Shown here piece by piece: positions 1-57,519 of a DNA stretch of 64,000 nucleotides; position 1 is the stretch's first letter, and each line of letters begins with the position of its first letter. The DNA is taken from contig CAWKHF010000001.1 in the NCBI GenBank assembly GCA_963849325.1, positions 448,001-512,000 of the forward strand, in the 5' to 3' direction. The position numbers and the translations under genes were made by a program. A model generated the notes under the pieces. The model did no database searches, was not told where the DNA came from, and was given only the letters and a program-made list of their open reading frames with translations. The stretch is from an uncultured Planctomycetota bacterium. Its GTDB lineage: Bacteria; Planctomycetota; Planctomycetia; Gemmatales; Gemmataceae.

Positions 1-13
1 GCGAGTCAGGTGG

Positions 14-8175: not shown

Positions 8176-8450
8176 CGCTCGCGTTGCAAGCGGTGTATTT
8201 CACGCTCGTTAGAGCGTGCTCTGCGAGCAGGCTGAGGAATTGGAGGAACAGAGGAAGCAGAGGAAACAGTTCCTCATTCGTCAACTCCTGCCGGCGACAG
8301 ATGTTCGGCGACGCGAGCGGCTCGCGGGCCAAGCAAACAACGCATCTCCTCAATTGTCAAAGACCAGCGCCACGGAGACCGGGCGAACACGATTGCAGCA
8401 CCTTGGCGTTCGCGGCATCGATGCGAGAAGAACGGCGTGACCGACAGCGA
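8176..8450 (-). promoter_or_regulatory. CRISPR leader
   Basis: Non-repeat region between the last repeat and the cas6-like gene, at the 5' end of the array in handle orientation. Contains TCTTTGACAATTGA (minus strand, ~8349-8363) and the palindrome GCGAGCGGCTCGC (~8313-8325). Confidence 0.75.
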
Positions 8451-9431
8451 TCATTCGGTTGGGAGGAACAGGCCCAGACCGAAATGAGAGGCGTGGCCCA
8501 GACAAAGCGGCCCCGCCAACTCGCGGTCGAACTCCAGGCGGAACGCCGCCGTCGCTCGATTGGCCCCGTCGTCGCCCGGTTTGCGGCGGCCGCGACGGAA
8601 CTGAAGCGGCCGGAACGAACAGGTGCGGCCTACGTGATCCAAGACAGTATAGGCGGCCGATGCACCGGCCGCCAGGGTGGGTTGACGGCGGAGCCAGCGT
8701 TGGCTTTCTTCGGCAAGGACGCGGGCCGCGAAGTGCGGCCGGCCCGTGAGACCGTGACAGTCGGGCGGGTCTTTCTGACGGCCGCGTTTCTTGGGGCAGC
8801 GCGTGACGACAAACGGCGTGGCCGACTCCCAGACGCGGGCGGGACCAAACAGGCGACAGCGGAAATCCTCCGGCCGGCCCAGCCCCACCAGCAGCACCTG
8901 CAACGGGTCGCCCTCCCCCCAGGGCAGCCGCCGCACGGCTTGGAGGGCCGCCAGCTCGTCGGGGCCGAATCCCTCCGCGGCGTAGACGGTTACGTGATCG
9001 AGGCGGCTGGCGTCGTTCTCGGCCGTGGGCAGATAGTAGGCGTGGTCGTGGGAGTTCAGCGGCCGACCCGTTTCATCCTTTCCGGAAAACACCCGCGAGT
9101 AGAACTGCTGCGGATATCGCTTGGCGGCGTTTCCGTATCTGCGACGGTGCAGAAAGCGCTGAAAGCGATGCATGAGCACATGCCGAAACGCCTCGGCCAC
9201 TGGGAGGGTTTCGGTCACAAGTGGTAGCACCGGGCCGTCGAGCAGGAAGCGGGCGATCGTCATTAAGGCAGTGCCAGGTTTCTCGGTAACCACGACACGA
9301 AATGGGCGGTCATAGGGAACCGCTTCAAGTGTCGCGGAATCCAACGTCGGAACCACAATCGGTGTGATCCGATTGTCCGAGGCCTCTGTGTCAGGCCGCC
9401 GGCGACGCGAACCCCTTCTTGGCCTGCCCAT
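8451..9431 (-). CDS. csb2: Cas6-like crRNA processing RAMP, corresponding to the C-terminal half of type I-G Csb2
   Basis: Motifs FSGKD..GRPL..HDHAYYLP, LDHVTVYA..GF, WESATPFV and the terminal G-loop GPLCLGHASHFGLGLF. AAGGAG RBS before ATG 9431. ~326 aa, with no recognisable N-terminal Cas5 half. Confidence 0.85.
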   Translation of the reverse strand: MGRPRRGSRRRRPDTEASDNRITPIVVPTLDSATLEAVPYDRPFRVVVTEKPGTALMTIARFLLDGPVLPLVTETLPVAEAFRHVLMHRFQRFLHRRRYGNAAKRYPQQFYSRVFSGKDETGRPLNSHDHAYYLPTAENDASRLDHVTVYAAEGFGPDELAALQAVRRLPWGEGDPLQVLLVGLGRPEDFRCRLFGPARVWESATPFVVTRCPKKRGRQKDPPDCHGLTGRPHFAARVLAEESQRWLRRQPTLAAGASAAYTVLDHVGRTCSFRPLQFRRGRRKPGDDGANRATAAFRLEFDRELAGPLCLGHASHFGLGLFLPTE

Positions 9432-9433
9432 GC

Positions 9434-11766
9434 CTAGCTCCTTGTTCGTTTCCACCCTGTGCTGACATCATAAAGTTGAACGGCGAGGCTCATTGGGACA
9501 TGAACGATCTGTGATTCTTGCGACGCCTGGTCAATAGAGTAACCATATCGCTTGGGAACCTCAACGATCCGTTGCCCTAATTCAGGCTGCAGTTTCCGAA
9601 GCCGTCCCCGGCGCTGTCCAGGATCGGATAGCGCGTTCGCTTCCCGGAACTGCCGCCAAACGTCGGCGTCGGCAATGTCAACTTCGACGAAGTGCGCAAC
9701 CGCATCCTGACGTTCGTCGATGAGTCGAACCGCTTTGTCTTGGTCCTTTGCATCGATTCCTTCCCCACGGAGAGAGGCAAACTCCCACTGCTGAACCGCC
9801 TCCATGACCTTGTGAAAGGTGTCCGACCCGGTTCGGCTGGCGACGAGCCTGAAATATTCACCCACGCTCTCTTGGAGTCTTGGCTCGGGTACGGGCGTCC
9901 CTTGACCGGCAGCTCTTTCCAGAACCTCTCGCGGCACCCATCTCCTTGTTGCCATAGATCAGGTTGCCGGTATCTCCTTCCACTCTGACCAGGAAAACCT
10001 GGCCGCGGCGTCCCGTGCCGTGCCGGTTACACCGTCCGGCGGCCTGAACCACGGCGTCTAGGGGGGCCAGCGCTCGGAAAACCACGTCGAAGGACAGATC
10101 GACACCTGCCTCCACCACCTGAGTGGCGATGAGAAGATGCGGCCTACCGTGGCACTTTACGATCTGTTGTAAGATCTTCTTCCGGTCCAGCGGTCGCAAG
10201 TTTGTGGAAAGGTGAAAGACTGGATTATCGGAAACGCCGGGCAGCACCTTACCAAGGCGCATAGGTCGAGGGCTTCCTGGATGGTGTTCACGATGACAAG
10301 GCAAGACGGCTGCTTCGGGTCCGTTACCACATTGCGAATCCGATCAGCCAAGGCGACGAGGCTCACTGGCTGCCCCGTCTGCACATGGAGGTCGTAACGG
10401 TCGAATGCAACCGCCAGCGTTTCAGCCAAGGTCGGGCGCAGCTCGCTCACATCGGTTGCCTCGAAGATGGCCGGTTGGGTAGCCGTTACCAGCAGTACAT
10501 CGGTTCCCCATTGATCGCTCAGTGCTCGCAGCGCGGTGTTGATAAGCCGCCAGAACTTGGCGGGGATGGCTTGCACCTCGTCAAGGATTAAGATGGAACC
10601 AGCCAGGCGGGCAAATCGCCTCGTGTCGGCGACAGTTCCGTGGAACAGGGCGTTTACGACCTGGACGAACGTAGTGCAGATGATGTCGGCTCGCCATCCT
10701 TCGACCCAACTCCGAGCAAGCGACTGCTCGCCGCTCCGCGCCAGCTCGCCCGGCTCCGCGACGTGGTGGTGAACTGCCAGAGTGCTTTCGTCTGGCTCGT
10801 CATCTCCCCATATGCGGCGCAGCACAGACGCGTTCTGGTCGATGATGCTTGTAAACGGCAGCGCGTAGACGATCGGGCACGGGGGAAGGCCAGCGCCAAT
10901 GCGCGCCTCGCGACGCCGGAGCGCCCACCCCAGGGCCGCGAGGGTCTTCCCCGCCCCAGTGGGAACCGTCAAGCTCCATAGGTGGCCCGAGTCGAGCTGG
11001 TCGGAGGTTTGCCCGATCCACGGCGGCCTGATACACGTGTTCTCGTGCCTGAACGACACGCGGGTCGGCCGCTGGACCGAAGTTGGCGGCGGTTCGGAAC
11101 CGCTCCAAGTGGGCAATCGTGAATCGAAGGGGTGCTTTGAAGAGATCAGGTGCGAACCCTGTCGCGGAATCTCGATCTGCCTCAATCAACAGGCCGAACC
11201 AACGCAGCGCGTCCTGGAACCTCTTCATGGCGGCCAACCCGGATGGCCCTTGCCGAAAAGCGGTAGACGAGCTGCACCCGCAGCTTGGCCCATCGCAAGT
11301 CGAGGTCCGGCTTCTGGACCGGCTCGCCAAGACTTGCGGCAAGCCAGGTCGCCGCGCCTTCAAGATCCAGGGCTTGAAGTTGCTTCGCCCACAGGCCACG
11401 CGCCACATCGTCGGATGGGGGCAGTGATTCCAGCGCGTTCTTCAACCCCGTGTGGTGGTGCGCCACCATCAGATACGCCAAGACCGTTTGGTCTATGGTC
11501 AGGCCATGAGCGGCGACCTTGGGTAACAGGTGGTTAAGCAGCCAGACGGCCCCAAGGTGGGCGTGCTGCTTCAACCGGAGATCGCTGACAGGTTGACCCT
11601 TCAGGTAGTGCTGGAAGTGTTCTGTCCCTTTTGCCACGTCATGGAACAGGCCGGCGATCCGACCCAACCAGCCACAGGCGGTTAGCCGATTCGCCACGTC
11701 TTGAAGGTGGCCGGTCAGGGGCTTGCCTGGGTGCGATTCACAGAGCCGAAAAGCAGGTGCCATCAT
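9434..11766 (-). CDS. cas3: Cas3 HD nuclease-helicase (split by several apparent frameshifts)
   Basis: Across consecutive ORF pieces: N-terminal SHPGKPLTGHL..FHDVAK..HAHLG..HHTGL, Walker A VPTGAGKT, YALPFTSIIDQ, ILDEVQ, TATQP, ATQVVEAGVDLSF and QAAGRCNR. Confidence 0.93.
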
Positions 11767-12475
11767 CGCACCTCCAATACGTGCGCATGGTAGCCGTGAT
11801 CGAGCCGCCGGTCGTTTCAAGTAGGTACTCTTCGTACCGCTCCACCTGCCGCGTCGGCAGCATTTCGGCCGGCATGCGAATCCGCTGGTAGACGGCTTCC
11901 TCGTCCCAACGAATGTCCTGTAGATCCGCGGTGCGGATGGGCGATACAAAACGCTGATGCCCGGCCCCGTCGCGGACCTCCTCCGCCTGAACAGTTCGGA
12001 CCACATCCCCGAACCATGCGATCATCCATGCCAGACCGAGGCAAGGGGTGTAATTCGTCATGCCCCGGCGCAGGGTCGTCGCCAACCGCGAACCGAGTTC
12101 GGGATGGCTGAACCAAACCCGATACCGTGGCTCGCGGATGATCTCATACCGCATGATCGTATGCGGGTTCACCGACTTGGGCCGGAAGGTCTGGATGCCA
12201 AGCACGGTCGGCGTTCCCTTGGTGTCGAGAAGGTTGAGCGAAACGTGCCCGGTGCGCAGCGGCGCGAGCATCTGGAGGGCGAATATCGCCTGGGAATCCC
12301 GAAACTGCTCCAGGGAATCATTCTTCGGCAGCCCCAGCACCGCCCCGACGAGACCACAAAGCGCCGTTCGCGGCGGCGCCGGGAAGCTCAGCGCCGTCGT
12401 GATGGCGTACGGCCGCCGGAAGTGGGCCATGTCCGACAGCACATCGAAGACAATGAACTCGCGCGGCATGGTCAT
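11738..12475 (-). CDS. cas5: Cas5 (type I-B/Hmari-like)
   Basis: FDVLSDMAHFRRPYAITTALSFPAPPRTALCGLVGAVLG and YTPCLG; lies between cas7 and cas3. Confidence 0.93.
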   Translation of the reverse strand: MTMPREFIVFDVLSDMAHFRRPYAITTALSFPAPPRTALCGLVGAVLGLPKNDSLEQFRDSQAIFALQMLAPLRTGHVSLNLLDTKGTPTVLGIQTFRPKSVNPHTIMRYEIIREPRYRVWFSHPELGSRLATTLRRGMTNYTPCLGLAWMIAWFGDVVRTVQAEEVRDGAGHQRFVSPIRTADLQDIRWDEEAVYQRIRMPAEMLPTRQVERYEEYLLETTGGSITATMRTYWRCDDGTCFSAL

Positions 12476-13473
12476 TCCAGGTTTAGTGCTTCGGCCGGCA
12501 GGCCCAGGAAGATCCTGTCCGTCGGCTCCGAGGAAAAAGGCAAACGTTTGTCCCAGGCGTAGCGGACTCGTTCGATCCGCTCCTTCTTCCTGTCCAGGGC
12601 CGCCGCGAGTTCACCGAGTTGAAGCGCCACCTCGCGCACTTCGCGGATCTGCTCATCGCGGAGCGTCTGCCTACCTTCCTTCGCCGTTGCCGTGATGGTC
12701 AAGAACCGATCCAGCCGGCCGATGTACGCATTCGGTTCCTTGTATTCGATGACCAGCAGCAACAACGGACGCTGACCGATCTTGGATCGGCTGATGAGGT
12801 TTTTCGTCCCGTACCATATGCCTTTGTACAGTTCCTCGACATCCGCGTCCGTCAGTTTGGTCGTTGTCGCCGCTTGCTGGTTCACGATGCCGTAGAAGGC
12901 GATGAGGGCGTAGGGGAGGATGTACTCCTCGCGGAATGTCCTCTGCTGAGCGCCTTGACCTGACGCGAACGCACCGGTCCCCTTGATGAACCGTGGTTCG
13001 ACGCGGTGCAGGCTGGTACCCATTGCGAACTGAACCGGTCCTGTCAGCGTGACGCTGGAGTCTTTTTCATTTTTTTGGATTTTGGAAACCGGAATCGTGG
13101 CGCCGAAGAGCCGCACGTCGATGCACTCCTTGATGACGCCGGCCTGAATCAGGTCGCGCTTCTGTAAGACATTCGTGGCCTTTTCCCTGGCTTCCTTGGC
13201 GACCTTCTGGAAAAAGTCTTCCGCCCGGTCCTTCCCCTCTTGGATGGTGCCGTCCGGCTTCTCGATCTCCCGACAGAAGATCTCCTGCTTGCCGTAGTCA
13301 TGCAAGTAGTCGCGGATCGTGCGCTTCAGACGCACGTCGGACACTTTGGCCCGGCCGGTTTCCAGGTCCATGCGCGGCCGATTCTCGTCGTTGGGGTCGC
13401 CGTTGGGGTTGGCGTCCGTGATGTCGTAGACGAACAGAATCTCGCTGCGCCGGCTGACCGTCTCAGTCTTCAT
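12472..13473 (-). CDS. cas7: Cas7/Csh2 (type I-B)
   Basis: RSEILFVYDITDANPNGDP..NRPR, VSDVRLKRTIRDY, DVRLFG, SVTLTGPVQF, GTGAFAS and SRSKIGQRP. Confidence 0.95.
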   Translation of the reverse strand: MKTETVSRRSEILFVYDITDANPNGDPNDENRPRMDLETGRAKVSDVRLKRTIRDYLHDYGKQEIFCREIEKPDGTIQEGKDRAEDFFQKVAKEAREKATNVLQKRDLIQAGVIKECIDVRLFGATIPVSKIQKNEKDSSVTLTGPVQFAMGTSLHRVEPRFIKGTGAFASGQGAQQRTFREEYILPYALIAFYGIVNQQAATTTKLTDADVEELYKGIWYGTKNLISRSKIGQRPLLLLVIEYKEPNAYIGRLDRFLTITATAKEGRQTLRDEQIREVREVALQLGELAAALDRKKERIERVRYAWDKRLPFSSEPTDRIFLGLPAEALNLE

Positions 13474-15383
13474 GGATTCGTTTCCTCACTGGTTGCGGGT
13501 AAGGTTCCTTCGTCTTCCTGTTCCTTGGCGAGCCTAGATCGCAGGGCGTGCCCCAGGGCGAAGTAATAGGAGATGTCGTCCGGGCCCAATGTCCAGCGTT
13601 CCGCCGTCGCGGCCAAAGCGGAGGCAGCGCAGCTCAGCAATCCGCTGACGATGCGCTCCTTGTCGGGGCCATATGCCTTGGCTTTGTCCTTGGCGGCGAT
13701 GAACAATCGCTGAACGTCTGGTTGGTTCAAGCGGAAGCCCTTATACTTCCCCTCGAAGGGCGTCGATCCGCGCACCAGGCTCTGGATCGTCTCGATTCGT
13801 CCGCAGCACGCCCCGACCAGGAAGGCTGCCTGGGCAGCGGGGTCGGTACGAAGCCGGCTGGTTTCCGGCGCTTGCTGGAAGAAGTGGCGGACACGATCCG
13901 CCTGCTCGTTACCTCCGTAGTCCACTATCATAGTCGGCTGGCTCCTTTCGTTGTCTCCTCTTGTAAGTTCCTCAAAAAACAGAAGCGACCGGAAGAGATC
14001 GGCGAGCCTGAACGGCCAAGCCTTGCCCTCCAAGTAGTCTTCTTGAACCCAACGCATCCCGATCTCGACCATGCGGTCGGCGCGATGTGGTCGGATCTCC
14101 AAGGCTGGCGAGTGGCTGAAAGAAAGTCATCGTCGAAGGTGCTACCGCCGCGTGCCGCAGGATAGATGTTTCTGAAGCAGCCGAAGGTAAACCTCCCTTC
14201 GGTGAAGGTCTTTGGGCTCGGCGGTTGAAGCCAGGGATGACGATCAACCCGATCCTGCGCACGGAAGAGTTCCCGGAATCGGGACGGTAGTAAGCCGAAC
14301 ACGGTAGAGCGCTGGCCGGAACGACTGCGGGTCGGGTTGGTAAAAGAGCAGGTCGAGTTGTAGCCGGTTGTTCTCCTCCGCAATGATCTCGAACAGGTCG
14401 TCCTCCGCATCCGTGAGCCGTTTCGATGCCTTGCGATCCACACGAGCGCTGGCTAATCGGTTCAGGGATTGGTAGGTGTCGGTCGCTGCCAGCCGCACCG
14501 AGGCCGGCAACATCAGATACTTGAAGCCGTAGTAGTTGAAAGAGAGATCCCTTTTGATTCGTTCACCGGAGAAATCAACCTTGTCACAGCACTCGCGACA
14601 GGCGGGAAAGTTCCGCCAGGCGTCCAGCGCATCGAAACCTCCTGACACAGAGCCGGGTTTGTCCAGCGTGTAAACCTTGAACTGCTGGATTTGGAGCAGG
14701 CCAGATACCTCGGCATCCCGTCTGCCGCAGATACAGCACTGACCCACGCCCTTGACATCACCCCCTATGCCCTTCTTCTTTGATGCAGCTTCCGTCCCTT
14801 TGCGGACTAGCGCCTGCTGGAAGGCTTTGAAGTCACCAACCCATCGGGCCTCGCCTTCCGAAGGCCGCCAGGCCACCGAGAGGATCGCTGGTTTCGTCAG
14901 ATCGGGGTGGGCTTCCCGCAAGCGGATGAAGATGGCCGATCGAGGATCGCTGCCCGCTGACCCCTGTTTGTCCTTGGGAGACTGCAAACGGTCGCGCATG
15001 ACGGCAAGCGCCTCGCACTCGCATGTCGGTAGGTCTTCGCACTGCTCCAACGCTTCATTGATGCTGCGAGCAAGCCGGCTGAGTTTCTTGCCGATTTCCC
15101 CATCGGCCGTGTTCTCCTTGCCCTTCTTGACAGTCGCCATTCCGGTCGTCGGCGTCGCGTCCCACCCGTTCGGCGGTCCTGGTCGGTAGAGGCAGCGCAA
15201 ACGGCGACCCTCGTCGTATTCGTCCACCTGCACCCCCTCAAAGCCGTCGGATGAGAATACGAGCAGCAGGATTTCCTTGGTGCGAAATTTGGCCGACGGG
15301 TCGGCCGCATATTGGATCAGCTGGTCCTTGACCCCTTCTCGTTCGAGGTAGAACTGGCCGAGTTCGGCGAATTGATGTATCAC
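13470..15383 (-). CDS. cas8b: Cas8b/Csh1 (TM1802-like) large subunit, frameshifted near 14290 and 14100
   Basis: C.ICG Zn motif, FKVYTLDKPG..SGGF..AWRNFPAC.EC and C-terminal AAFLVG..Q...PF...YYFALG; lies immediately upstream of cas7. Confidence 0.88.
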
Positions 15384-15544
15384 CGGGTAGACCCTCTTGA
15401 TAGCCCGCGATTGTCGAGTCAGCCGCCACCCGCTTTACGGTCACCACGTCCTTGGCACTCACCTCCGTCGGTTGGCTGAGTTCTCACTTGGTCCATGCGC
15501 TTCGCGCACGAACGAACGATCTACAGCCGATCCTCGGTGAGGTG

Positions 15545-15550
15545 TATAAT
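15545..15550 (+). promoter_or_regulatory. Putative sigma70 -10 box for mini-array 1 / vapBC
   Basis: Perfect TATAAT 48 bp upstream of the mini-array in otherwise GC-rich DNA; no clear -35. Confidence 0.45.
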
Positions 15551-15598
15551 GTCCTACAGCCGGGCCCGCGAGCATACAAGGGCGGTAGCAGAAATCGC

Positions 15599-15710
15599 CT
15601 TCTCCACGGTCTTCGGGCCGTGGCCGCTTTGAAGCAGGCGTCTGCCAGTGGGACAGTTGACCGACCATAGTGAGTTCTCCACGGCCTTCGGGCCGTGGCC
15701 GCATTGACAG
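15599..15710 (+). CRISPR. Mini-array 1 (2 repeats, one 38-nt spacer), opposite orientation to the main array
   Basis: CTTCTCCACGGTCTTCGGGCCGTGGCCGCTTTGAAGC (15599-15635), spacer 15636-15673, GTTCTCCACGGCCTTCGGGCCGTGGCCGCATTGACAG (15674-15710). Confidence 0.93.
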
Positions 15711-15779
15711 GTGCTGCCGACCATCGCCCCTTTCTCTCCCGTACCGTCCGCCCGGTCAGGAGATTGCCGGAGACTGTCC

Positions 15780-16007
15780 ATGACCACCGTTTCCCTTTCG
15801 GAAGCTCAAGCCCATCTGCCGGAACTGTTGGAAAAAGTCGCGGCCGGTCAGGAGGTCGTCATCACGCGCGATGATACGCCGCTCGCCTTGATAACGCCCA
15901 TTTGCACGGCCAATCCGCAACCGCGGTTCGGCAGCTGCAAAGGAATGCTCTCCATCGTGAGTGATGATGAGGAACACCTGGAGCACTTCAAGGAGTACAT
16001 GCCTTGA
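15780..16007 (+). CDS. Phd/YefM-family antitoxin
   Basis: MTTVSLSEAQAHLPELLEKVAAGQEVVITR..P.A; overlaps the PIN toxin start. Confidence 0.88.
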   Translation: MTTVSLSEAQAHLPELLEKVAAGQEVVITRDDTPLALITPICTANPQPRFGSCKGMLSIVSDDEEHLEHFKEYMP

Positions 16008-16390
16008 GGCTCCTGCTCGATACGCACACGTTCCTCTGGTTTACGCTCGGCGACACCCAGTTGAGCCCCACAGCGCTGGCCCTCATCAATGATCCGGGGA
16101 ATGACAAGCTTATCAGCCCAGCCAGCTACTGGGAGATAGCCATCAAGGTCAGCATCAGGAAACTGGCCCTGAACCAGCCCTTCGAGGACTTCCTCGATCG
16201 CGGAATCCGGCAGAACGGCTTCAAAATTTTGCACATCGACCTGCGACACACGGCACGCGTGGTCACGTTGCCGTTCCACCACAAGGATCCGTTCGACCGT
16301 CTGCTCATCGCCCAAGCGTTGACCGAGGGCATCGCCATCGTGGGGGCTGACACGCTCTTCGATCAGTACGGCGCGACGCGGTTGTGGTAG
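16004..16390 (+). CDS. vapC: VapC PIN-domain toxin
   Basis: LLLDTHTFLW, SPASYWEIAIK and HHKDPFDRLLIAQA. Confidence 0.93.
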   Translation: MRLLLDTHTFLWFTLGDTQLSPTALALINDPGNDKLISPASYWEIAIKVSIRKLALNQPFEDFLDRGIRQNGFKILHIDLRHTARVVTLPFHHKDPFDRLLIAQALTEGIAIVGADTLFDQYGATRLW

Positions 16391-16408
16391 GGCAGATGTC
16401 GGGCCGTC

Positions 16409-16693
16409 TTACACCACCACAACCACATCCTTCGCATCGGCCGCCTCCGTCGGCCGGCCGAGCGCCTCGATCGCGTTCACGCACTTCGCGCACAGCGGGA
16501 TGAACAGCACCTGATCCTGCTCCAAGTTGATGAGATCATACAGCCGCGACCGCAAACGTACAAAGTCGGTAGCGGACAAGCGACACAAAAACACCGAATA
16601 TTGCTTGCGGTAGCCGAAGTCCTCGCACACCGTCGCCACCTTGCGCAGACGTTTCGGATCGCTGATGTCGTAGGCGACGAGGTAGCTATCCAA
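16409..16693 (-). CDS. cas2: Cas2
   Basis: [25 protein letters not shown], 94 aa. Confidence 0.96.
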
Positions 16694-16699
16694 GGATTA

Positions 16700-16734
16700 C
16701 CCCTCACCCTACCCTCTCCCCAAGGGGCGAGGGA
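16700..16734. repeat. REP-like palindrome (CCCTCACCCTACCCTCTCCC...GGGGCGAGGG)
   Basis: Intergenic hairpin between cas1 and cas2; a related hairpin lies at ~46319-46349. Confidence 0.55.
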
Positions 16735-16742
16735 CGATCGGC

Positions 16743-18462
16743 TCACCGCACCGTGAAGCCCGTGTACGCCGGCACCGAGCCGCGCACGTACGCGGCCAGC
16801 ATCCGCGCCTGCACCTCCAGCATCCGCGAATAGCTCATCTTGTAGCCGTACACCGGGTGCGTCACCACCGTCGCCTTCCGCTGCTCGTAGGCCTGGAAGA
16901 ACTTCCGCCGGCCCGAGTCCGTCAGCTGACACGCCTCGCGCCACACCAGGAAATCGTCCGGCGTCAGCATCTCGTTGTTGATCAGCGTCAGCACCACCGA
17001 GTCGGCGATCACCGGGCGGAACTCCTCCATCAGGTCCAGCGCCAGCGACGGCTTGCCGTGGCGGTTGGAGTGGAAGAAGCCCTTGTACGGGTCGAATCCC
17101 ACCGTGCAGACCGCCGCGAAGCAGTCCTTCGTCAGCATCGCGTAGGCGAACGACAAGCAGCGCGTTCACCGGGTCGCGCGGCGGGCGGCGGTTGCGCGTC
17201 GTGAACTCGAAGCCGCGGCCCGGCGGCTGCACCTGCAGGAAGCGGCCGAACTCGCCGAAGTACAGCGCCGCTCCCTGCCCCTCCAGCCCCAACACCGTCT
17301 CCAGCGGACGCGGCACTGTCCAACCGCCGGATCAGGTCCGCCAGACCCCGCGCGGCCGGCTCGTCGCTGCCGCGGTCGCCGTCGCCGCGCAGGCTGCGCA
17401 TCAGCAGCGCCCGCTGGTTGGTGAGCTTGGCCCGCACCACCGCCTTCGACAGCGTCAGGCACTCCGCGGCGTCGGCGAAGCGGCGGAACTGCGCCTCGCG
17501 CAGCCCGACGTTCTTGCGCTCGGCCGGCGCGAACGTGCCGATGAACCGGCCGTAGCCCGTCAGGTAGGCCACCGGGATCTCGTTCGTCACCAGCGTCTCC
17601 AGCGCCTGCGTCGAAACCTGCACGTTGCCGAAGACCACCACCTGCCGGATCGCGTGCATCGGCACCCGCGTCACCTCCTGGCCGTCCTTGCGGACGACCA
17701 GATGCTCGCTGCGCTTGCCGACGTGGCTGCCCGGCTCCTGCACGTACAGCACCGCGCCGTCGTCGGACTGCGGGATCACCCGCGTCAGGCCGGGCGGCGG
17801 CGAGGCCGTTTCCTCGGCGGCCGGCGGCAGGCCGATCTGGTAGAGCGTCTCCTCCGGCAGACAGACCGGGGCCAGCGAGCAGCCGAAACAGCGGTGCCGC
17901 AGCTCCGCCGGCAGCGGGTCCGGCGGGGCGTCCAGGGCAGACAGCCGCCGGCATTCGTCGATGGCCGTGCGCGTCTTCGCCCGCAGCTCGTCGCGTGAAG
18001 CGGACCTCGACGCGCTCGCGCGTGCCGGCGTAGAACTGGAAGCCGCGCTGCACCGGCGCGCCGAACGCTTCTTCCATCAGCAGCGCCTGGCCGCACAGCT
18101 GCACGGCGTCGTTGTCCCAGGTCGTCGGCCGGCCGTCGTCGTCGCGCGGGGCGGAGCCGTGCTTGGTCTCCACCGGGTAGGACACGCCGTCCTTCTCCTC
18201 GATCACGTCGAGGACGCCGCTGATGCCGAGCGTCTCCGACGACAGGTGGACGCCGCGACTGCGGTTTGCATCGCCTTCCTTGCGCGTCTTGTTGGCCAGT
18301 TCCGGCTCATCGACGCGGCGGTGATCGAACAGGCCGGCCTCGACGTGTTCGTTGGTGCGGCATCACGGCATCGACGTACTGGAGGTAGTAGAGGCGCGGG
18401 CAGTAGGTGACCTGGTTCAGTGCGCGCAGGGGGATCATCTGGGCGTCGGTCGTTGCGGTCAT
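16743..18462 (-). CDS. cas1: Cas4-Cas1 fusion (type I-G-like), frameshifted in this sequence
   Basis: Cas4 part: [30 protein letters not shown] and a C-terminal Cys cluster. Cas1 part: [48 protein letters not shown] and LEVQAR. Confidence 0.93.
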
Positions 18463-18490: not shown

Positions 18491-20407
18491 TTAATCCACC
18501 ATCCGCAGCTTGCAAGGCGCCGGATCCATAGCCACCAGGAGCGGCCGAGAAAGGTGCGTGAAACTGACCACCGCCTGACCCGGCGCCAGTCCCGGGATGC
18601 GGCTCCACAGCGACTCGTCGATGCCGCTGATGGTATGTCGCAGGTTCATTAACACCTGCGGGTCGGTCAGCTTGTGCAGCACAAAGTTGTTGCACAGCGA
18701 CAAAACCTGACGGGGCAAGTGCGCGGGTAACTGTGTCACGAACACCAGCCCGAGCCAGCGCTTCCGGCCGCGCTTGGCGATGCGGGCCACTTGCTGGAAC
18801 AGCGTGTCCATCCGCTCGATGCGATCCGCACTGAGGAACTCGTGCGCTTCCTCAATGATGAGCAGGACGCGAGGAACCGGCGGGTCCTGCCCCGCGGCCT
18901 TCGCCTTCTCGTAGCGGCGGTAGGCATTTTCTTGGGCTTTCTGAACGCCGCGCATCAGATCGGCGATCGCAAAATTCGCCAGTTCCGTCATGCCGGTGTC
19001 CGAAAGGTCCACCACGGAAACCTGACCCGGTGCGATGAGCTGGTCGTAGTTCAGCGGCGGAGCGCCGCGTTTTTGCAAATGGCGATCAAACACTTTCAAG
19101 CGATTCAGCCGCCAGAGCAGGCTCTTGACCTTGCCCCACGAGGACGCACTGCTCAGTTCCTTTGCCTTGATGTGTTTCTCCAACGCCGCGCGGCCGGCGT
19201 CGGTACGGAGCACGGCGTTGTATGGCTCGAAGCTCGTTTTGCTCACCGTCGCCAGACACTTGCCGACCACGTCGAGCAGCAGCGACAGCGTCAGGCGGGG
19301 CCAGCCGCGCTCGAACTCGTCGATGCGGAGCAGCAGCTGTTCCTGCTTGTCCACTTCTTCCTTCGGCTTGTCCCGTTGTGGGAAAATGCCGAGGTCGCGC
19401 ATTATCGCCTTGGTGATTTCGTAGGCCGGAAGAAACCGCTCAGATTGAGCATCGTTCATCCCCAGCATTTCGATAACCGCGTGCGGAGAAAGCGCGGCAA
19501 ACTGGAGCGAGAACTCGCTGCGGTTTGGATGGCGCGGGTTCGTGGACTCACGACCGACAAGGTGGTACAGCCGCATGGAGTCCGCGGGGATGCCGGCTGG
19601 CGACAGGCCACGCTCCTGCAAGGCGTCCAGCATCGTGCGGTGATCGGCCGGTTCGTGCAAGTGCGTGTATTCGCCCTCGACATCCAGCAGAATGACGGTC
19701 ATCCCCACGGCCTGAGCTTGCTGGATCAAGCCCGCCACCGTCGTCGATTTGCCGCCGCCCGTTGTACCGAGGACCGCGACGTGGCGCGGCAGCACGGCCT
19801 TCTTGTCGGACGGTACGTTGACGATCACCTCGCTCGCCCCAACCACGGAACCCAGCCGGATGTCGCCATCGGTGTGCAGGACTGCGGCTACCTCCGATTG
19901 CGTCAGGGCAACGACGGGGCTATTGGGCAGCGGTCGCAGGCGCGGCGGAACCAGCGAGCCGTTCTTGAGTTCCTCGCCCAGAATCGAGACCGTCGCGCGG
20001 CCGTGGTAGGGCGGCAGATAGACGCCGCCGCGCGCCGTCACGGTGACGAGCAAATGCGAGTCGGCCCGTAGCGTGTCCGGTTCAGCAAAGGGACCGGCGG
20101 TCACGATGCCCAGGTACTTGCGCCCGTCGCAGCTCTTGATGCGCACCAGGGATTGCGACGGCGCCTGTTGGGCGTGATCGCGCGGCAGCAGGACCGTCAC
20201 GCTGCCGTCTTCGCTGCCGGGCAGGTCGAACATGGTCGCGCCGATGGCGCCTTCCCGATCCGGGTCGGGAGCCAACTCGCCGCCGGCACGGGTTACGTCG
20301 GCTTGGACCTGCTGGAGCAGATCCTCCGGCGGACGGGCGATGCCCAGGTCTTCCTGGCCGTTGTCGTGTGCCGTCCTAGGCGTTGGTCGCGTTGTGGGTG
20401 CAGGCAT
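18491..20407 (-). CDS. herA: HerA/FtsK-family ATPase (DUF87)
   Basis: N-terminal HAS-barrel-like region, HVAVLGTTGGGKS, ILLDVEGEY, LLIIEEAHEF and RIAKRGRKRWLGLVFVTQLP. Confidence 0.9.
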   Translation of the reverse strand: MPAPTTRPTPRTAHDNGQEDLGIARPPEDLLQQVQADVTRAGGELAPDPDREGAIGATMFDLPGSEDGSVTVLLPRDHAQQAPSQSLVRIKSCDGRKYLGIVTAGPFAEPDTLRADSHLLVTVTARGGVYLPPYHGRATVSILGEELKNGSLVPPRLRPLPNSPVVALTQSEVAAVLHTDGDIRLGSVVGASEVIVNVPSDKKAVLPRHVAVLGTTGGGKSTTVAGLIQQAQAVGMTVILLDVEGEYTHLHEPADHRTMLDALQERGLSPAGIPADSMRLYHLVGRESTNPRHPNRSEFSLQFAALSPHAVIEMLGMNDAQSERFLPAYEITKAIMRDLGIFPQRDKPKEEVDKQEQLLLRIDEFERGWPRLTLSLLLDVVGKCLATVSKTSFEPYNAVLRTDAGRAALEKHIKAKELSSASSWGKVKSLLWRLNRLKVFDRHLQKRGAPPLNYDQLIAPGQVSVVDLSDTGMTELANFAIADLMRGVQKAQENAYRRYEKAKAAGQDPPVPRVLLIIEEAHEFLSADRIERMDTLFQQVARIAKRGRKRWLGLVFVTQLPAHLPRQVLSLCNNFVLHKLTDPQVLMNLRHTISGIDESLWSRIPGLAPGQAVVSFTHLSRPLLVAMDPAPCKLRMVD

Positions 20408-20423
20408 AGCTGTTCTCCTCTCC

Positions 20424-21698
20424 TCAATCGTGACGAGTCGTGCGTTCGCTGAAGTAGCGCCAGGGCGCACCGGCCGCAGCGTAGGCCGTTTCGGTCAGGT
20501 GGTGCAGACTGCCGCCGAACACCGAATCGCAAACGTGATGGGCCAAGTCGATCAGCAGCGGGAAGCCGCGCTCTTCTTGGAACATGCTGTCGGCCAGCAC
20601 GATATGGGCGGCGAAGTGAGCGTGGTCCACATGGGCGTAGAAGAGCTGCGCTGGAGCCAGGATCGAGGCGCGGTACAGGCCAACCACCACTTGCGACGCG
20701 ACACGCTCGATGAAGCGTGGTATCCATTCCGGCGGGGACAGCCGCTCGCCGTCCCAGAATAAGTCCCCGGAGGATTCCATCGTGAATCGGCGTTGTTGGA
20801 ACCAGCCTTCCAGACGCGGAGCCAAGTTGCCGAGGATGGCGTAATGCAGCGGAGGCAGCGCCTGGCCAATGGTCAGCGCCAGCAGTTCACGGGGCTCACT
20901 GGCCACGAAGACGAATTTGCCGTAACCCTCGATCAGTTCGCGCATCATCCCGGTCGCGGCGACCATCAATTCCAGGATGTCGGCGCCAGTCAGCAATTCG
21001 TAAGTGATCGGATTGCCGTGGCCCATCCGCCAAACCGCCCTCGATTGGCGGAGGAGAATGGCCCGTTCGGCGTAATCCATGACAGCCTTCCTCGCCAATT
21101 CGCCGAGTTGGTCGCTCGGCGTTCCGTGGTTGAGGGCGGCTCGTTGGTCGCGGCGTCGGAGCAGCTCTAATACCTCATTAAGGTCCGCGGGGCCGCGTTG
21201 CCGCAGGTCGCGGCGGAAGAGTCGCTGCTGCCATGTGCCTTGATCGCCAGCGTAGGATACCAGCGAAACGCCGACCTGGTAGATCGTCAGAGGCAGCGTA
21301 GCATGTACCTGAACCGTCCCGTCACACGCTTCCACACCGCCGTTAAATAACAGGCCGCGATGAATGAGGGCGAGAATGTCCATGTTCGCGGTGAAGACGC
21401 CGCAGCCCGGTGCCGAAGCTGGGTCGATAAGCTTTGGGAAAACTTCGCTGCGAATGCACCGTTGGTACTCGTCCTCCTGGGCGATGGCCTCACGCACTTC
21501 GCGCTCGATACGCGGATACTCCTGCGCCAGGTCTCCTCCCAGCCGCCATGTGTTCACATCGAGAACCCGTTGCAACTCCTCACCGAAGCTCGCTCGAAAC
21601 TCGGCGGCGGTTGCCGGTTCCGAAGGCAGGCGCGTCGGCGACCGTGCCGCGGCCGACACGGGGGATGCTGCATCGTCTCGGGATGTGGTGGTTGCCAT
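20424..21698 (-). CDS. nurA: NurA-like (RNase H fold) nuclease
   Basis: VEACDGT resembles the NurA AVDGS motif and GFPLLIDLAH resembles GYP..L..AH; directly upstream of herA. Confidence 0.72.
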   Translation of the reverse strand: MATTTSRDDAASPVSAAARSPTRLPSEPATAAEFRASFGEELQRVLDVNTWRLGGDLAQEYPRIEREVREAIAQEDEYQRCIRSEVFPKLIDPASAPGCGVFTANMDILALIHRGLLFNGGVEACDGTVQVHATLPLTIYQVGVSLVSYAGDQGTWQQRLFRRDLRQRGPADLNEVLELLRRRDQRAALNHGTPSDQLGELARKAVMDYAERAILLRQSRAVWRMGHGNPITYELLTGADILELMVAATGMMRELIEGYGKFVFVASEPRELLALTIGQALPPLHYAILGNLAPRLEGWFQQRRFTMESSGDLFWDGERLSPPEWIPRFIERVASQVVVGLYRASILAPAQLFYAHVDHAHFAAHIVLADSMFQEERGFPLLIDLAHHVCDSVFGGSLHHLTETAYAAAGAPWRYFSERTTRHD

Positions 21699-21780: not shown

Positions 21781-21807
21781 TCCGTGGCCCAGTTCTTTGA
21801 CAATTGA
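21781..21807 (+). promoter_or_regulatory. Leader-derived motif upstream of mini-array 2
   Basis: TCCGTGGCCCAGTTCTTTGACAATTGA matches the main leader (minus strand TCCGTGGCGCTGGTCTTTGACAATTGA) at 24/27 positions. Confidence 0.75.
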
Positions 21808-21834: not shown

Positions 21835-21946
21835 GTTCTCCACGTTCTTATGAACGTGGCCGCATTGAAGATCCCTCACTACTTCCCGACATGCGCGACA
21901 AAGTTCGACATTCTCCACGGTCTCATGGCTGTGGCCGCATTGAAGT
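21835..21946 (+). CRISPR. Mini-array 2 (2 diverged repeats, one 38-nt spacer)
   Basis: GTTCTCCACGTTCTTATGAACGTGGCCGCATTGAAGA (21835-21871), spacer 21872-21909, ATTCTCCACGGTCTCATGGCTGTGGCCGCATTGAAGT (21910-21946). Confidence 0.88.
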
Positions 21947-21984
21947 GTAAGCAATCCCGCAAGCTCGCCGTGGCAAGCCAACGC

Positions 21985-22719
21985 TCAGGAGCGCAGTCGC
22001 TGGAGCAACGGATCTTCCCGGACGGGCGGTAAGAGGAGACGGCTATAGTCCTTAGCCTGCTCCTGCGGCAGACCGAAATCGGCTTGCAACACTTCCGCAA
22101 GTCGGATTCTTCCTTCCACACCCGAAATCGACCCGGCTCGCGCCCATACGTCGGCGGCAGGCGCCAGCAGTTCGTAGGCGACCTGATCGGCTTCCTCTTC
22201 GGCCAGCGTGATGGTCGCGTGAAGCACTTCCCGGCGCGGGCCACGCCGCATCAAATGCAGATGAAAACCGAGGGAAATGCTTTTCAAGAGCGCATGAAGA
22301 CACTCCTCTGGCGTCGGCGGGCGCTCCCCGTCCAGGACTTCCACGATTCGTTTCCCCAAGTAGCGGCACGCCCGCCGCCGAGGATGCCAGTAATGTCGCA
22401 GAAAATGAGCCAACTCGTGTGCCAGTGAGAAACGCTGGTCGTCATCGCTGTCGGTTCCGTCGAGAAAGATCAGTCCATGACCGAAATGGGCCGCCAGGCA
22501 AGCCCGCAACGGACGATCCGCTTCGTCGCAACGACAGGCGATCCCGTTCCGGCACAACCAGTCACGGACACTATCAAGCCGTAAATGCGGCAGCAAGACG
22601 ATGGATACCGGCAGCGCCCGGACTATGGGCCGGCGTAATTCACGAGGGAAGGATTCGTCCAAGCCCGCAGCCGCCCAGAACTCACGGATCAATTCCGCGA
22701 TCCACAGCGGCACTCTCAT
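21985..22719 (-). CDS. ImmA/IrrE-family Zn metallopeptidase
   Basis: QRFSLAHELAHF (HExxH) followed by EEEADQVAYELLAP. Confidence 0.85.
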   Translation of the reverse strand: MRVPLWIAELIREFWAAAGLDESFPRELRRPIVRALPVSIVLLPHLRLDSVRDWLCRNGIACRCDEADRPLRACLAAHFGHGLIFLDGTDSDDDQRFSLAHELAHFLRHYWHPRRRACRYLGKRIVEVLDGERPPTPEECLHALLKSISLGFHLHLMRRGPRREVLHATITLAEEEADQVAYELLAPAADVWARAGSISGVEGRIRLAEVLQADFGLPQEQAKDYSRLLLPPVREDPLLQRLRS

Positions 22720-23099
22720 GACTTCGCTCCTTGCGGCGGAGTGTCTTCCGTCGTATTGTCTCGCGCCGCTAACAGGAATCCTTTCTCGCTGTTTTGGCCG
22801 CCGGCGCCAATCCGAAGCCGCAACAGGCTGTGACCCCGCCTGGCAACCTCGGCCAAGACCTCAGCATCGAGCGAGAAGCGCTGCGCGATCTTTTCGACAT
22901 CTTGCCAGAACAGAGGGGCCTGCGCTCGGGGCATCCGGCACAGGCGCAGATGGGTGAGGATTCCCTCGGAACAACCGAGCCGGATGGCCAATCCGGCATC
23001 CTCAAGCTGTTCGCTTCGGGCATACTCCGCCAGCGCGCTGGCGAAAAAATCGGGAGCATCGGCGACACGCAGGGCCAGGTGTTCCAGGTACGGATTCAT
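22716..23099 (-). CDS. Small hypothetical protein (possible HTH / anti-sigma / peptidase substrate)
   Basis: 127 aa, ATGA overlaps with both neighbours; contains LAIRLGCSEGILTHLRLCRMP and LLAARD. Confidence 0.7.
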   Translation of the reverse strand: MNPYLEHLALRVADAPDFFASALAEYARSEQLEDAGLAIRLGCSEGILTHLRLCRMPRAQAPLFWQDVEKIAQRFSLDAEVLAEVARRGHSLLRLRIGAGGQNSEKGFLLAARDNTTEDTPPQGAKS

Positions 23100-23731
23100 G
23101 CTTTTCTCCCGGCTCGCTCCAGCATCTTCTTTAACCGATCCTTGTTTCGCTTCACCTGCCGGAATTGCTCTTTCGCAGGCAGGTGCAACAAACCGTAGAG
23201 TTCGGCGAAGATTTTGGTCCGGCGTTCCTTCCGCAAAATCAAATCCAGCGCGCGGGAGTCGGTTTCGGACAAACCTTGGCAGACGGAATTTGAGATGGAG
23301 TTCATCGCGCTCTCGTCTTCCTCAGCCACTCGCATCGGGAGTGACGGATCGTCATGGCGTCCCAGATACTTCCCGGCCTCCTGCGAAAGTTCGACACTTT
23401 TCCACGAAACCCGGCCTTTGTTGTGTCTCCGTTCTTTATCGAGAAGGTTGCGCAAGTCTCCGCGGGCTGACATGCGCAGGTACACTTCCAGGGTCTGCCG
23501 TTCCGGAGAGTACGACCGCGGATTACGAATCAAAGCCAGCAGGGCATCCTCCGCAGCCTCGATGCGGACATCCGGAGGCACGCTCGCGTCGGTTTTGGCC
23601 AACCAGGCGACGAGCGGTTCCAGGTAGGCGTCAGCCAGATCATTCGGGGCAGTTGGATCATCAGCCAGGAGGCGCTGATGAATTTCAAGCGCGTTCGGTT
23701 GCCTGGGTGTTAAGGCGGTAGGACGGGCCAT
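23096..23731 (-). CDS. Divergent ECF/sigma70-like RNA polymerase sigma factor
   Basis: Region 2-like EAAEDALLALIRNPRSYSPERQTLEVYLRMSARGDLRNLLDKERR and a C-terminal region 4-like HTH (FAELYGL..VKRNKDRLKKML). Confidence 0.7.
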   Translation of the reverse strand: MARPTALTPRQPNALEIHQRLLADDPTAPNDLADAYLEPLVAWLAKTDASVPPDVRIEAAEDALLALIRNPRSYSPERQTLEVYLRMSARGDLRNLLDKERRHNKGRVSWKSVELSQEAGKYLGRHDDPSLPMRVAEEDESAMNSISNSVCQGLSETDSRALDLILRKERRTKIFAELYGLLHLPAKEQFRQVKRNKDRLKKMLERAGRKA

Positions 23732-46393: not shown

Positions 46394-47048
46394 ATGCCGG
46401 TGCTCACGCTGCCACGCCCCCCGAAAGAACGCCGACGATCCGCCCGGCCCGGCCAGCCAAAGACCGCTGGCTGGACGACCCGGAAGTGCGACTGATGCTG
46501 CGCATCCGCGACGGCGACGAGGACGCCTTCCGTCAATTGGCGGAGCGCTACCGCACGCGCGTGTTCGGCTTCTTCTGCCGCCGGCTGGGCGACCGCCAGG
46601 AGGCCGAGGACTTGACGCAGGAAGTGTTGCTTCGCTTGTTCCGTTCGCGGCAGCGCTACCAGCCGCGCGCCCGCCTGGCGACGTGGGTCTTTCACATCAC
46701 GCAGAACGTGGCCCGCAACGCCCTGCGCTTCCGCCGTCGTCATCCCAGCGTGCGCCTGAACGACGGTGATGGGCGATGGACGACCTGCTGGACGTCTTGC
46801 CGGCGAGTGCCGGCGATGCGCCGTCGCGGCCGCTGGAGCGCGCCGAACTGGCCGGCGTCGTCCGCGCCGCCATCGCCGGACTCGGCGAGCGTCAGCGCAC
46901 CGCCTTGGAGCTGCACCAGTTCGAGGACCAGACCTACGCCGAGGTGGCCGCCCGCATGGACATGACGCTCAAGGCCGCCAAGAGCCTCCTGTATCGCACG
47001 CGCAACCTGCTCCGCGTTCGCCTGGCGCCGATGCTCCAGGACGATTGA
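46394..47048 (+). CDS. ECF sigma factor (frameshifted)
   Basis: EAEDLTQEVLLRLF, ATWVFHITQN and TYAEVAARM..AAKSLLYRTR. Confidence 0.88.
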
Positions 47049-50051: not shown

Positions 50052-53132
<3,081 letters not shown>

Positions 53133-57497: not shown

Positions 57498-57519
57498 AAG
57501 ATTGTCGCTGGATCATGCA

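Follow-up and report, generated by a model that had tools for sequence, protein, structure and literature searches.

In a 64,000-nt stretch of DNA from an uncultured Gemmataceae bacterium, called the window hereafter, the spacer-length insert of a small CRISPR array (mini-array 2) shares a two-part sequence with the interior of a sigma-like gene. The question raised by this locus is whether the partial match reflects CRISPR targeting of the sigma gene or some other property common to the two sites. It is best read as shared gene control rather than as CRISPR targeting of that gene. As judged from comparative sequence data, both copies are likely to represent one conserved promoter-like cis-regulatory element of a five-gene cassette, whose most likely reader is the sigma factor of the cassette itself.

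The Two Copies and Their Surroundings

The genes and the two motif copies are as follows.
23096 to 23731, minus strand: sigma-70-family (ECF-like) protein of 211 aa, assigned from Pfam, a family profile, AF2 and Foldseek
22716 to 23099, minus strand: small 127-aa protein, probably of XRE-type HTH fold (CapH/DdrO-like, a weak assignment), with an invariant C-terminal LLAARD
21985 to 22719, minus strand: M78 (IrrE/CapP-like) metallopeptidase (Pfam Peptidase_M78 2.5e-8, above the cut-off; PADLOC capP 8.9e-7)
20424 to 21698, minus strand: NurA-like protein, ATG at 21698, named from its Atlas neighbours and its pairing with HerA
18491 to 20470, minus strand: HerA ATPase (Pfam DUF87/HerA 2.6e-18; PADLOC HerA 9.5e-30)
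16477 to 18206, minus strand: Cas4/Cas1 fusion gene, read as two ORF pieces
21880 to 21910, minus strand: nurA-proximal motif copy, TGTCGAAC-N14-CGGGAAGTA, candidate nurA-herA promoter, which fills the "spacer" of mini-array 2
23367 to 23396, minus strand: internal motif copy, TGTCGAAC-N13-CGGGAAGTA, in codons 113-122 of the sigma-like gene, candidate internal promoter of the small gene and the M78 peptidase gene

On the plus strand, the two copies, which lie about 1.5 kb apart, have in common an exact 9-nt block (TACTTCCCG, at 21880-21888 and 23367-23375) and an exact 11-nt block (AAAGTTCGACA, at 21900-21910 and 23386-23396). The gap between the blocks is 11 nt in the spacer copy (ACATGCGCGAC) vs. 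10 nt in the sigma-gene copy (GCCTCCTGCG). The two blocks, their spacing and their coordinates were thus reproduced as given in the preliminary description, and its estimate that one copy lies about 180 bp upstream of nurA agrees with the measured distance, the nurA ATG being 182 nt downstream of the spacer copy. The similarity extends past the blocks, with TCCC at 21872-21875 and 23360-23363 on one side and, beyond the 11-mer, a likeness between TTCTCCACG (21911-21919) and TTTTCCACG (23398-23406) on the other.

The pattern TGTCGAACTTT-N8-13-CGGGAAGTA occurs twice in the window, each time on the minus strand, and was absent from all of 100 dinucleotide shuffles. Genome-wide (8,163,468 bases, 14 contigs), TGTCGAACTTT-N10/11-CGGGAAGTA occurs only at 21880-21910 and 23367-23396, while the single blocks are found twice (11-mer) and 51 times (9-mer). 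When the 243 main-array spacers and both mini-array spacers were compared with the genome by BLAST, the sigma site was not prominent by local-alignment score, and the best matches of the mini-array spacers were chance 13-14-mers. The match is significant because of its bipartite form, its uniqueness in the genome, the distance between the copies and, above all, its conservation in other genomes.

Conservation of the Motif in Homologous Cassettes

Homologous five-gene cassettes from Gemmataceae, Dehalococcoidia and metagenome contigs were compared, the search for related loci having been seeded with a three-sequence alignment. The gene order is sigma-like protein, small HTH-like protein, M78 peptidase, NurA-like protein and HerA, followed in the window by cas4/cas1; by tblastn, the cassette is syntenic in loci L011, L012, L013, L016, L019, L020 and L022-L026. 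Of the 12 loci with NurA, four (the window, L012, L016 and L024) have a cas4/cas1 gene within the stretches examined.

The conserved pattern, GTCG[AC]AC - fixed gap - GGGAA, is found after the M78 stop codon and ahead of nurA in 12 of the 13 loci that hold this junction (the window and 11 others), L024 being devoid of the nurA-proximal copy. The junction of L012 illustrates the arrangement: the motif begins 2-3 nt past the M78 stop codon and is followed by GGAGGA and then by the nurA ATG, with no CRISPR repeat. The second position, within the sigma ORF, is occupied in 11 of 14 loci according to the strict pattern and in the remaining three in relaxed form, these copies keeping GTC GAA/GGA ... 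GGG AAT / CGG AAC. The spacer copy of the window is of the nurA-proximal type (GGGAAGTAG), like those of L012 and L023, and the internal copies read GGGAAGTAT. The pattern is specific, with 29 matches in 373,216 scanned bases, 23 of them at the two cassette positions. All 23 are on the sense strand, and their GTCG-to-GGAA distance is 22 nt in 18 instances, 23 nt in four and 20 nt in one; the sequence between the blocks is not conserved. Two matches were detected in viral contigs, neither adjoining cassette genes. A relaxed search for a wider regulon in this genome yielded six matches vs. four in the reversed sequence, and therefore no wider regulon backs the sigma-regulon reading.

Constraint on the DNA itself is apparent in the internal copies. 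The residues encoded there vary (GK, GN or RN; VEL or VAL), while the synonymous codons stay invariant across loci, valine being GTC in 15/15 cases, glutamate GAA in 12/12, glycine GGG in 10/10 and arginine CGG in 4/4. Given local codon usage and loci taken as independent, the probabilities of such invariance are about 1e-6 for GTC, 1e-7 for GAA, 1e-8 for GGG and 7e-3 for CGG, values that overstate independence, since the loci are related. The preliminary description had asked whether the DNA motif, and not only the encoded peptide, is conserved in homologous loci. The answer is positive, as indicated by the occupancy of both positions, the prevailing 22-nt spacing, and the invariance of synonymous codons where amino acids differ.

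The Sigma-Like Protein and Its Partners

The sigma-like protein of the window matches Pfam Sigma70_r2 with an E value of 0.0038 and 17.4 bits, below the 24-bit gathering cut-off; the same model matches 10 of the 14 family members, at best with 3.1e-6, and the family profile matches Mycobacterium tuberculosis SigK at an E value of 0.0047. The family has no match to a curated NCBIfam or PADLOC model. In the AF2 model (mean pLDDT 82), two helical domains exceed 90, and a linker at about residues 105-130, in which the internal motif copy lies, has low pLDDT. The best Foldseek match of this model is E. coli sigmaE (6jbq_F, 5.8e-4) and nearly all top matches listed are sigma factors, with low TM scores (0.3-0.4) because the domain orientation differs. 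As modeled, the 211-aa protein folds like ECF sigma factors, with sigma-2 and sigma-4 domains joined by a linker.

According to its model, the small protein looks like an HTH protein and not like an anti-sigma factor. Its best Foldseek match has an E value of 0.17, the CapH N-terminal domain ranking second at 0.24, and Pfam HTH_31 matches 2 of the 14 members of its family at 0.007. This HTH-like protein could itself be the binder of the motif. The NurA-like protein has no Pfam, NCBIfam, PADLOC or PDB sequence match; in its nearest Atlas clusters (0.97), PF09376 NurA is present in 21-64% of the members.

A Candidate Promoter Pair

The element is laid out like a sigma-dependent promoter, with (T)GTCG(A/C)AC as the -35-like block and GGGAA(G/C)(T)A as the -10-like block on the sense strand, set at a fixed gap of variable sequence. 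In the proposed mechanism, the copy ahead of nurA-herA would constitute one promoter, P_nurA, and the copy coded within the sigma-2/sigma-4 linker, which is oriented toward the small gene and that of the peptidase, would constitute another, P_int. Transcription is predicted to start at both, most likely through their recognition by the sigma factor of the cassette. It is probably the HTH/M78 pair that gates this circuit, much as CapH/CapP or DdrO/IrrE would. The preliminary description had likewise preferred a sigma promoter embedded in a CRISPR spacer, and motif conservation, spacing and invariant codons argue for that interpretation.

GAAC-containing -35 elements are typical of ECF sigma factors, many of which go with a CGT-type -10. 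The cassette resembles ECF sigma/promoter systems in that a small two-domain sigma-70-family protein is encoded beside the genes that it would control, in that two conserved blocks are set at a fixed distance with GAAC in the first, and in that one motif copy is situated within the operon of the regulator itself or upstream of it. Unlike in those systems, one copy is embedded in the linker coding sequence of the sigma gene itself, and the sigma factor is partnered by an HTH-like protein plus an M78 peptidase, with no recognizable anti-sigma factor.

Some observations speak against a promoter. The -10-like block (GGGAAGTA) differs from the CGT-type -10, and in the other loci some 20-21 nt separate GGGAA from the nurA ATG, which would give a very short leader. 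Just ahead of nurA, an operator or an RNA-level signal is equally possible.

Mini-Array 2 and the Main CRISPR Array

The CRISPR-related features around the nurA-proximal copy are the following.
21835 to 21871, plus strand: repeat R1 of mini-array 2, 31/37 identical to the main repeat, its stem kept by a compensatory G-C to U-A change
21872 to 21909, plus strand: "spacer" of mini-array 2, 38 nt, the reverse complement of which is the promoter motif plus GTGAGGGA
21910 to 21946, plus strand: repeat R2 of mini-array 2, 31/37 identical to the main repeat
21781 to 21807, plus strand: leader element TCCGTGGC.C.G.TCTTTGACAATTGA, with two copies in the genome
21719 to 21747, plus strand: sigma-70-like promoter match TTGCCG-17-TATACT, from a consensus scan only, pointing away from nurA
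1 to 8175, minus strand: main CRISPR array, with the 37-nt repeat GTTCTCCACGGTCTTCGGGCCGTGGCCGCATTGAAGC, extending left of the window

What is unusual here is that the 38-nt spacer of a mini-array with retained repeat hairpins and an element of the main-array leader is the candidate nurA promoter itself. The 8-bp repeat hairpin forms in the plus sense only and includes one compensatory pair. R2 begins with an A in place of the G of the main repeat; this base is the last A of the 11-mer and, read on the minus strand, provides the T of TGTCGAAC. The leader element is common only to the leader of the main array (8350-8376 of the window, minus strand), which numbers 252 repeats in the genome, and the TTGCCG-17-TATACT match could drive mini-array 2. 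With two repeats and a leader fragment around P_nurA, a processed crRNA-like RNA antisense to this promoter is therefore probably also made, as far as can be predicted from these elements.

Among the cassettes compared, P_nurA is flanked by CRISPR repeats in this genome only, with repeats at the M78-nurA junction in none of the 12 others. When 150 family genomes were searched at the DNA level for the mini-array, nothing was found beyond ordinary arrays or single repeats. From one DNA run (share 0.06), five short contigs (155-240 nt) were obtained that contain parts of nurA and M78, none of them across the mini-array. The sequences flanking mini-array 2 hold no third degenerate repeat, the best identities (19/37 and 6/37) being within background, and the leaders of mini-array 1 and of a solitary repeat on contig C12 have nothing significant in common with other leaders. 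No phage matches were obtained for the main-array spacers against 50,697 phage records. A relic of a native promoter was also sought in the 38-nt interval that separates R2 from the M78 stop codon, and this candidate was rejected, as 985 of 5000 shuffles scored equally well.

Alternative Explanations

The motif might be the operator of a repressor, such as the small XRE-like HTH protein, a putative substrate of the M78 peptidase, rather than a -35/-10 pair. This alternative, which we hold to be unlikely, draws on the small-protein model (pLDDT 86.6), which matches XRE-type HTH proteins only, including the CapH N-terminal domain (7t5u) and DdrO, on the capP match of the peptidase, and on the location of the nurA-proximal site directly upstream of the ribosome-binding site, equally apt for an operator. 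However, those Foldseek matches are weak, and the two blocks are mutually unrelated and without dyad symmetry, unlike the inverted repeats to which dimers of XRE proteins usually bind. A sigma factor agrees better with the fixed 22-nt geometry, the single sense-strand orientation and the GAAC-containing first block. As for a fortuitous likeness, or the remnant of a duplicated fragment of the sigma gene, its probability is next to negligible. Single 11-14-mers common to a spacer and an 8-Mb genome are indeed frequent, but the bipartite pattern is absent from the shuffles and unique in the genome, the same motif occupies the orthologous intergenic place in other phyla, and the sequences between and beyond the blocks are unlike, contrary to what a gene fragment would leave.

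The other explanations involve CRISPR RNAs. A mini-array of the CreR/CreA type might produce a crRNA-like RNA that guides a type I effector to the sigma-gene site and represses the gene, including its internal promoter. The location inside the cas locus, the preserved hairpin with its compensatory change in the two repeat-like units, the leader element found elsewhere only in the main-array leader, and the promoter-like nature of the matched site are consistent with this, and the available parts of the published accounts describe mini-arrays whose spacers show partial complementarity to cas or cargo gene promoters (PMC10120712; 10.1101/2023.03.10.532045). In those same parts, the targets of regulatory mini-arrays have a canonical PAM and contiguous 5' seed pairing. 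The PAM expected here is TTC, as deduced from a single main-array protospacer (34/35), the only well-matched one; ahead of the sigma site stands GCG, or GGC in the other register. Only four seed bases (TCCC) pair before a 1-nt register shift, short of a contiguous seed of at least 10 nt, and the 9- and 11-nt exact blocks are mutually 1 nt out of register. No genome site combines a TTC PAM, a match to the spacer seed and good overall identity, and a search of the genome for PAM-plus-seed targets of either mini-array spacer yielded no convincing candidate. Moreover, the same motif pair in 11 loci without a mini-array, which is absent from all 12 other cassettes, already accounts for the match. 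Guidance of Cascade by a crRNA, offered in the preliminary description as an alternative, is thus very unlikely, and the remark made there that the seed-end match is poor was borne out. Action at the RNA level is more improbable still, to a high degree: the plus-strand RNA of the mini-array would be able to base-pair with the minus-strand sigma mRNA over 9 + 11 nt and might act as an antisense RNA or guide an RNA-targeting effector, but the two short helices are split by an 11x10-nt mismatched loop, the Cmr2 and Csm1 models detected no Cas10 in the genome (84.7% complete), and the motif kept in loci without the mini-array explains the similarity.

Relation to Known Regulatory Systems

Like CapH/CapP of CBASS and DdrO/IrrE, the cassette pairs an M78 peptidase with a small protein of probable XRE-like fold upstream of a defense or repair module. 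It differs from both in having a sigma factor in front, and in that the putatively controlled genes are NurA-HerA, with cas4/cas1 in some loci.

As regards CreA/CreR, the available parts of the reports (PMC10120712; 10.1101/2023.03.10.532045) describe mini-arrays that, like mini-array 2, have two degenerate repeats around one spacer-length insert in a type I cas locus, with parts of the repeat hairpin and handle kept and a spacer that relates to a promoter. Unlike in the systems described there, the spacer of mini-array 2 is itself the conserved, putative native promoter of the neighboring operon, on the opposite strand, and does not pair with a promoter elsewhere; the sole similar site has no PAM or seed match, and the mini-array was not found in related loci. 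Promoters inside spacers of CRISPR arrays are also known from Sulfolobales, where, according to the accessible part of the account, they are cryptic, accidental, AT-rich, of viral origin and suppressed by the cell (PMC10883916). The element described here differs from these in being an orthologous, conserved candidate host promoter in its native place and orientation.

Possible Function and Significance

That the arrangement is functional rather than accidental, the mini-array having captured, or arisen around, the native sigma-dependent promoter of an adaptation-linked nurA-herA-cas4/cas1 operon, seems to us quite unlikely. If it were so, transcripts with their start within the spacer would have R1 in reverse complement in their 5' UTR. 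By pairing with abundant pre-crRNA, this anti-repeat could let the supply of crRNA feed back on the operon. An opposing leader-driven transcript of the mini-array would collide with the promoter or mask it. The promoter may have turned into a spacer via CRISPR adaptation at a solitary leader-repeat unit, or through array-templated repair after self-targeting, and either route, if true, would be a new way for the CRISPR machinery to rewire host gene control. By keyword search of the literature, which was not exhaustive, no description was found of a native promoter flanked by CRISPR repeats, and a conserved host promoter serving as the spacer of a mini-array appears to be an undescribed state.

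A shared promoter motif would explain the partial spacer match without crRNA-guided regulation. If the promoter reading is true, it comes with a warning that partial matches between spacers and genomes near cas loci need not mean such regulation. It would also provide a clear case of a promoter in the inter-domain linker of its own regulator, revealed by invariant synonymous codons. An uncurated cassette present in several phyla would then have an ECF-like sigma factor and an HTH/M78 pair in control of a NurA-HerA module, and its ready-made promoter motif would render the circuit directly testable.

The bipartite match and its setting

Mini-array 2 sits between the M78 peptidase and NurA-like genes of a cassette that lies next to type I cas genes, and the features concerned are the following.

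1-8175, repeat reads on the minus strand: main CRISPR array, 37-nt repeat, 252 repeats in the genome
8350-8376 (minus) and 21781-21807 (plus): 27-nt leader element with TTGACA inside, copies 24/27 identical, only these two in the genome
15599-15710, plus: mini-array 1, with a 38-nt spacer between repeats that match the main repeat at 35/37 and 33/37
16477-18206, minus: Cas4/Cas1 fusion gene, in pieces
18491-20470, minus: HerA
ATG at 21698, minus: NurA-like protein
21835-21871, plus: repeat R1 of mini-array 2
21872-21909, plus: its 38-nt spacer
21910-21946, plus: its repeat R2
21985-22719, minus: M78 peptidase
22716-23099, minus: small protein, 127 aa
23096-23731, minus: sigma-like gene, 211 aa

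The NurA-like protein is named after its HerA partner and its Atlas neighbours (PF09376 in 21-64% of members); a direct family match was sought for it and none was found. The cas genes beyond the main array comprise Cas8b/TM1802, Cas7, Cas5, Cas3 pieces and a Csb2-like piece. Reading frames are split across 8451-18206: cas8b (14244-15383 and 13470-14102), the cas4/cas1 fusion and cas3 (three or more pieces between 9434 and 12006) each fall into separate ORFs that overlap. Comparison with relatives by tblastn switches frame across these genes, reflecting either cas gene decay or assembly indel errors (completeness 84.7%, 14 contigs). Both mini-arrays of the window are on the plus strand. Mini-array 1 separates cas8b from a divergent small ORF and has a TATAAT some 48 nt upstream of it, a position typical of a CreR-like regulator; a genome search for a PAM-plus-seed target of its spacer found none. 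A solitary repeat unit distant from the cas locus (contig C12 of the same genome, 38172-38208, plus strand; 31/37 to the main repeat) keeps the repeat hairpin. The stretch 47000-62000 carries tandem repeats that are very long and GC-rich, with periods of 12/18 nt, together with related paralogous blocks (families D1, D2, D4, D8); these are probably genes for repetitive surface proteins.

The mini-array 2 spacer contains TACTTCCCG-N11-AAAGTTCGAC, the final A of the 11-mer block being the first base of R2, and a second copy of both blocks, with an N10 gap, is found at 23367-23396 within the sigma-like ORF. The two exact blocks that the preliminary description had reported as shared by spacer and sigma gene are confirmed: the bipartite pattern is matched twice in the window versus 0 times in 100 shuffles, and is absent elsewhere in the 8.16-Mb genome.

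Conservation of the motif in homologous cassettes

Of 60 relatives searched with the sigma-like protein, 7 had matches (E up to 0.001), and further loci came from one scan each of genome and metagenome collections (L017 and L018 duplicate the contigs of L011 and L012). Their source MAGs are Gemmatales or Gemmataceae, plus two Dehalococcoidia. The order sigma, small, M78, NurA, HerA is common to L011, L012, L013, L016, L019, L020, L022, L024, L025 and L026 (tblastn); the contig ends within NurA in L023 and within the small gene in L027, and L021 has sigma, small and M78 without NurA. In L012, the M78 stop is directly followed by TGTCGAACTTC-N10-CGGGAAGTA, then GGAGGA and the nurA ATG, and this junction is devoid of CRISPR repeats.

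The cross-locus pattern GTCG[AC]A[CA]-N10-17-[CTG]GGAA occurs at the M78 end, upstream of nurA, in 12 of 13 loci (the exception being L024) and within the sigma ORF in 11 of 14; just 6 of its 29 matches in 373,216 scanned bases fall outside these two positions. The remaining three sigma genes still have GTC GAA or GGA ... GGG AAT or CGG AAC at the aligned codons. Of 23 instances, 18 have a GTCG-to-GGAA distance of 22 nt, four, including the window's nurA copy, have 23 nt and one has 20 nt; the sequence between the blocks shows no conservation across them.

Some loci depart from this layout. The metagenomic L024 has an in-frame TAA in its sigma gene immediately before the internal motif (5836, minus strand) and an extra copy upstream of that gene, on the other strand (about 6270), but lacks one in front of nurA; the locus may represent a split variant or one in decay. 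In L021 (5670-5900), another ORF, possibly an insertion, replaces nurA after the M78-proximal motif, which is retained. In L011 (3270-3360), a long, perfect-looking inverted repeat (arms of about 35 nt) follows the M78 stop and precedes the nurA promoter motif, showing the M78-nurA junction to be a hotspot for insertions.

At the internal site, codons are invariant for valine (GTC, 15/15), glutamate (GAA, 12/12), glycine (GGG, 10/10) and arginine (CGG, 4/4), with chance probabilities of about 1e-6, 1e-7, 1e-8 and 7e-3 from the codon usage of long ORFs of the same loci, figures that overstate independence since the loci are kin. The encoded residues vary (VEL, VEH, VEQ or VAL; GK, GN or RN), the homologues are 27-53% identical to the window protein, and the motif falls where the model is poor, in the linker (about residues 105-130) that joins two confident helical domains. 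Together, these properties mean that the DNA is constrained beyond the protein's requirement, which answers whether the DNA motif or only its peptide is conserved: codons stay invariant where residues differ.

Candidate readers of the motif

Sigma70_r2 of Pfam matches 10 of the 14 members of the 211-aa family (best 3.1e-6), the window copy being under the cut-off; a family profile finds SigK at E 0.0047, and by structure the protein's model best matches sigma factors, E. coli sigmaE among them. The -35 boxes of ECF factors typically contain GAAC. The motif consists of two unrelated blocks with a fixed gap, in a single orientation directly ahead of genes, with GAAC in the first block, and judged from sequence it has the anatomy of a sigma-dependent promoter. 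The promoter reading preferred in the preliminary description has comparative and codon support, and the sigma factor would drive both P_int, the internal copy, and P_nurA, the nurA-proximal one (21880-21910, minus strand).

The small protein (model pLDDT 86.6) weakly resembles XRE-type HTH domains (best E 0.17), the CapH N-terminal domain and DdrO being among its weak structural matches, and its homologues share a near-invariant C-terminal LLAARD (14/14). The M78 peptidase matches PADLOC capP. By analogy with CapH/CapP or DdrO/IrrE, the HTH/peptidase pair would gate the cassette.

Mini-array 2 as a possible guide RNA

The match might also mean that the spacer RNA guides a CRISPR effector to the sigma gene, or is antisense to it. 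Mini-array 2 has its crRNA sense on the plus strand, where both repeats keep an 8-bp hairpin that R2 loses in the other sense; in R1 a G-C pair is replaced by U-A, a compensatory change, and the only other genome copy of the 27-nt element a little upstream of R1, which may be a leader promoter or protein-binding site, is in the main-array leader. These features suggest that mini-array 2 has been maintained; its transcription and processing are probable. The sigma site, however, is preceded by GCG or GGC, not by the 5' TTC that accompanies the single good main-array protospacer. The TTC PAM comes from a single main-array spacer (1523-1557) matching 34 of 35 bases on contig C6 of its own genome (235120-235154), either a self-target or a resident mobile element. 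The seed-end match is as poor as originally described: pairing at the 5' end stops after four bases at a register shift, and one block is a base out of register with the other. Regulatory mini-arrays described in the literature have targets with an adjacent PAM and a seed match (PMC10120712; 10.1101/2023.03.10.532045), in contrast to the sigma site, which has neither. The genome holds no PAM-plus-seed site for this spacer elsewhere, nor a match with either Cas10 model (completeness 84.7%). Targeting of the sigma gene, or antisense action on it, is thus unlikely, and since the same motif pair occurs in loci without any mini-array, the spacer/sigma match needs no CRISPR explanation.

A probable promoter in the place of a spacer

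In 11 other cassettes, the motif lies between the M78 stop and nurA without repeats. In the window, 38 nt and R2 stand between it and the M78 stop, and on its other side R1 and a 136-nt leader precede the nurA ATG. The promoter motif fills the spacer from the -35 to an SD-like GAGGGA, the deviant first base of R2 completes TGTCGAAC, and the copy in the spacer belongs to the nurA-proximal type (GGGAAGTAG). A relic of the native promoter, sought between R2 and the M78 stop, was not supported. This arrangement possibly arose by spacer acquisition at an inserted leader-repeat unit, or through self-targeting followed by array-templated repair. Any RNA started at the spacer promoter would have an anti-repeat in the operon 5' UTR. 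The cassette with its promoter pair is a new variation on known kinds of regulation, and the promoter-as-spacer state, present in this one genome, is the part that deserves experiment.
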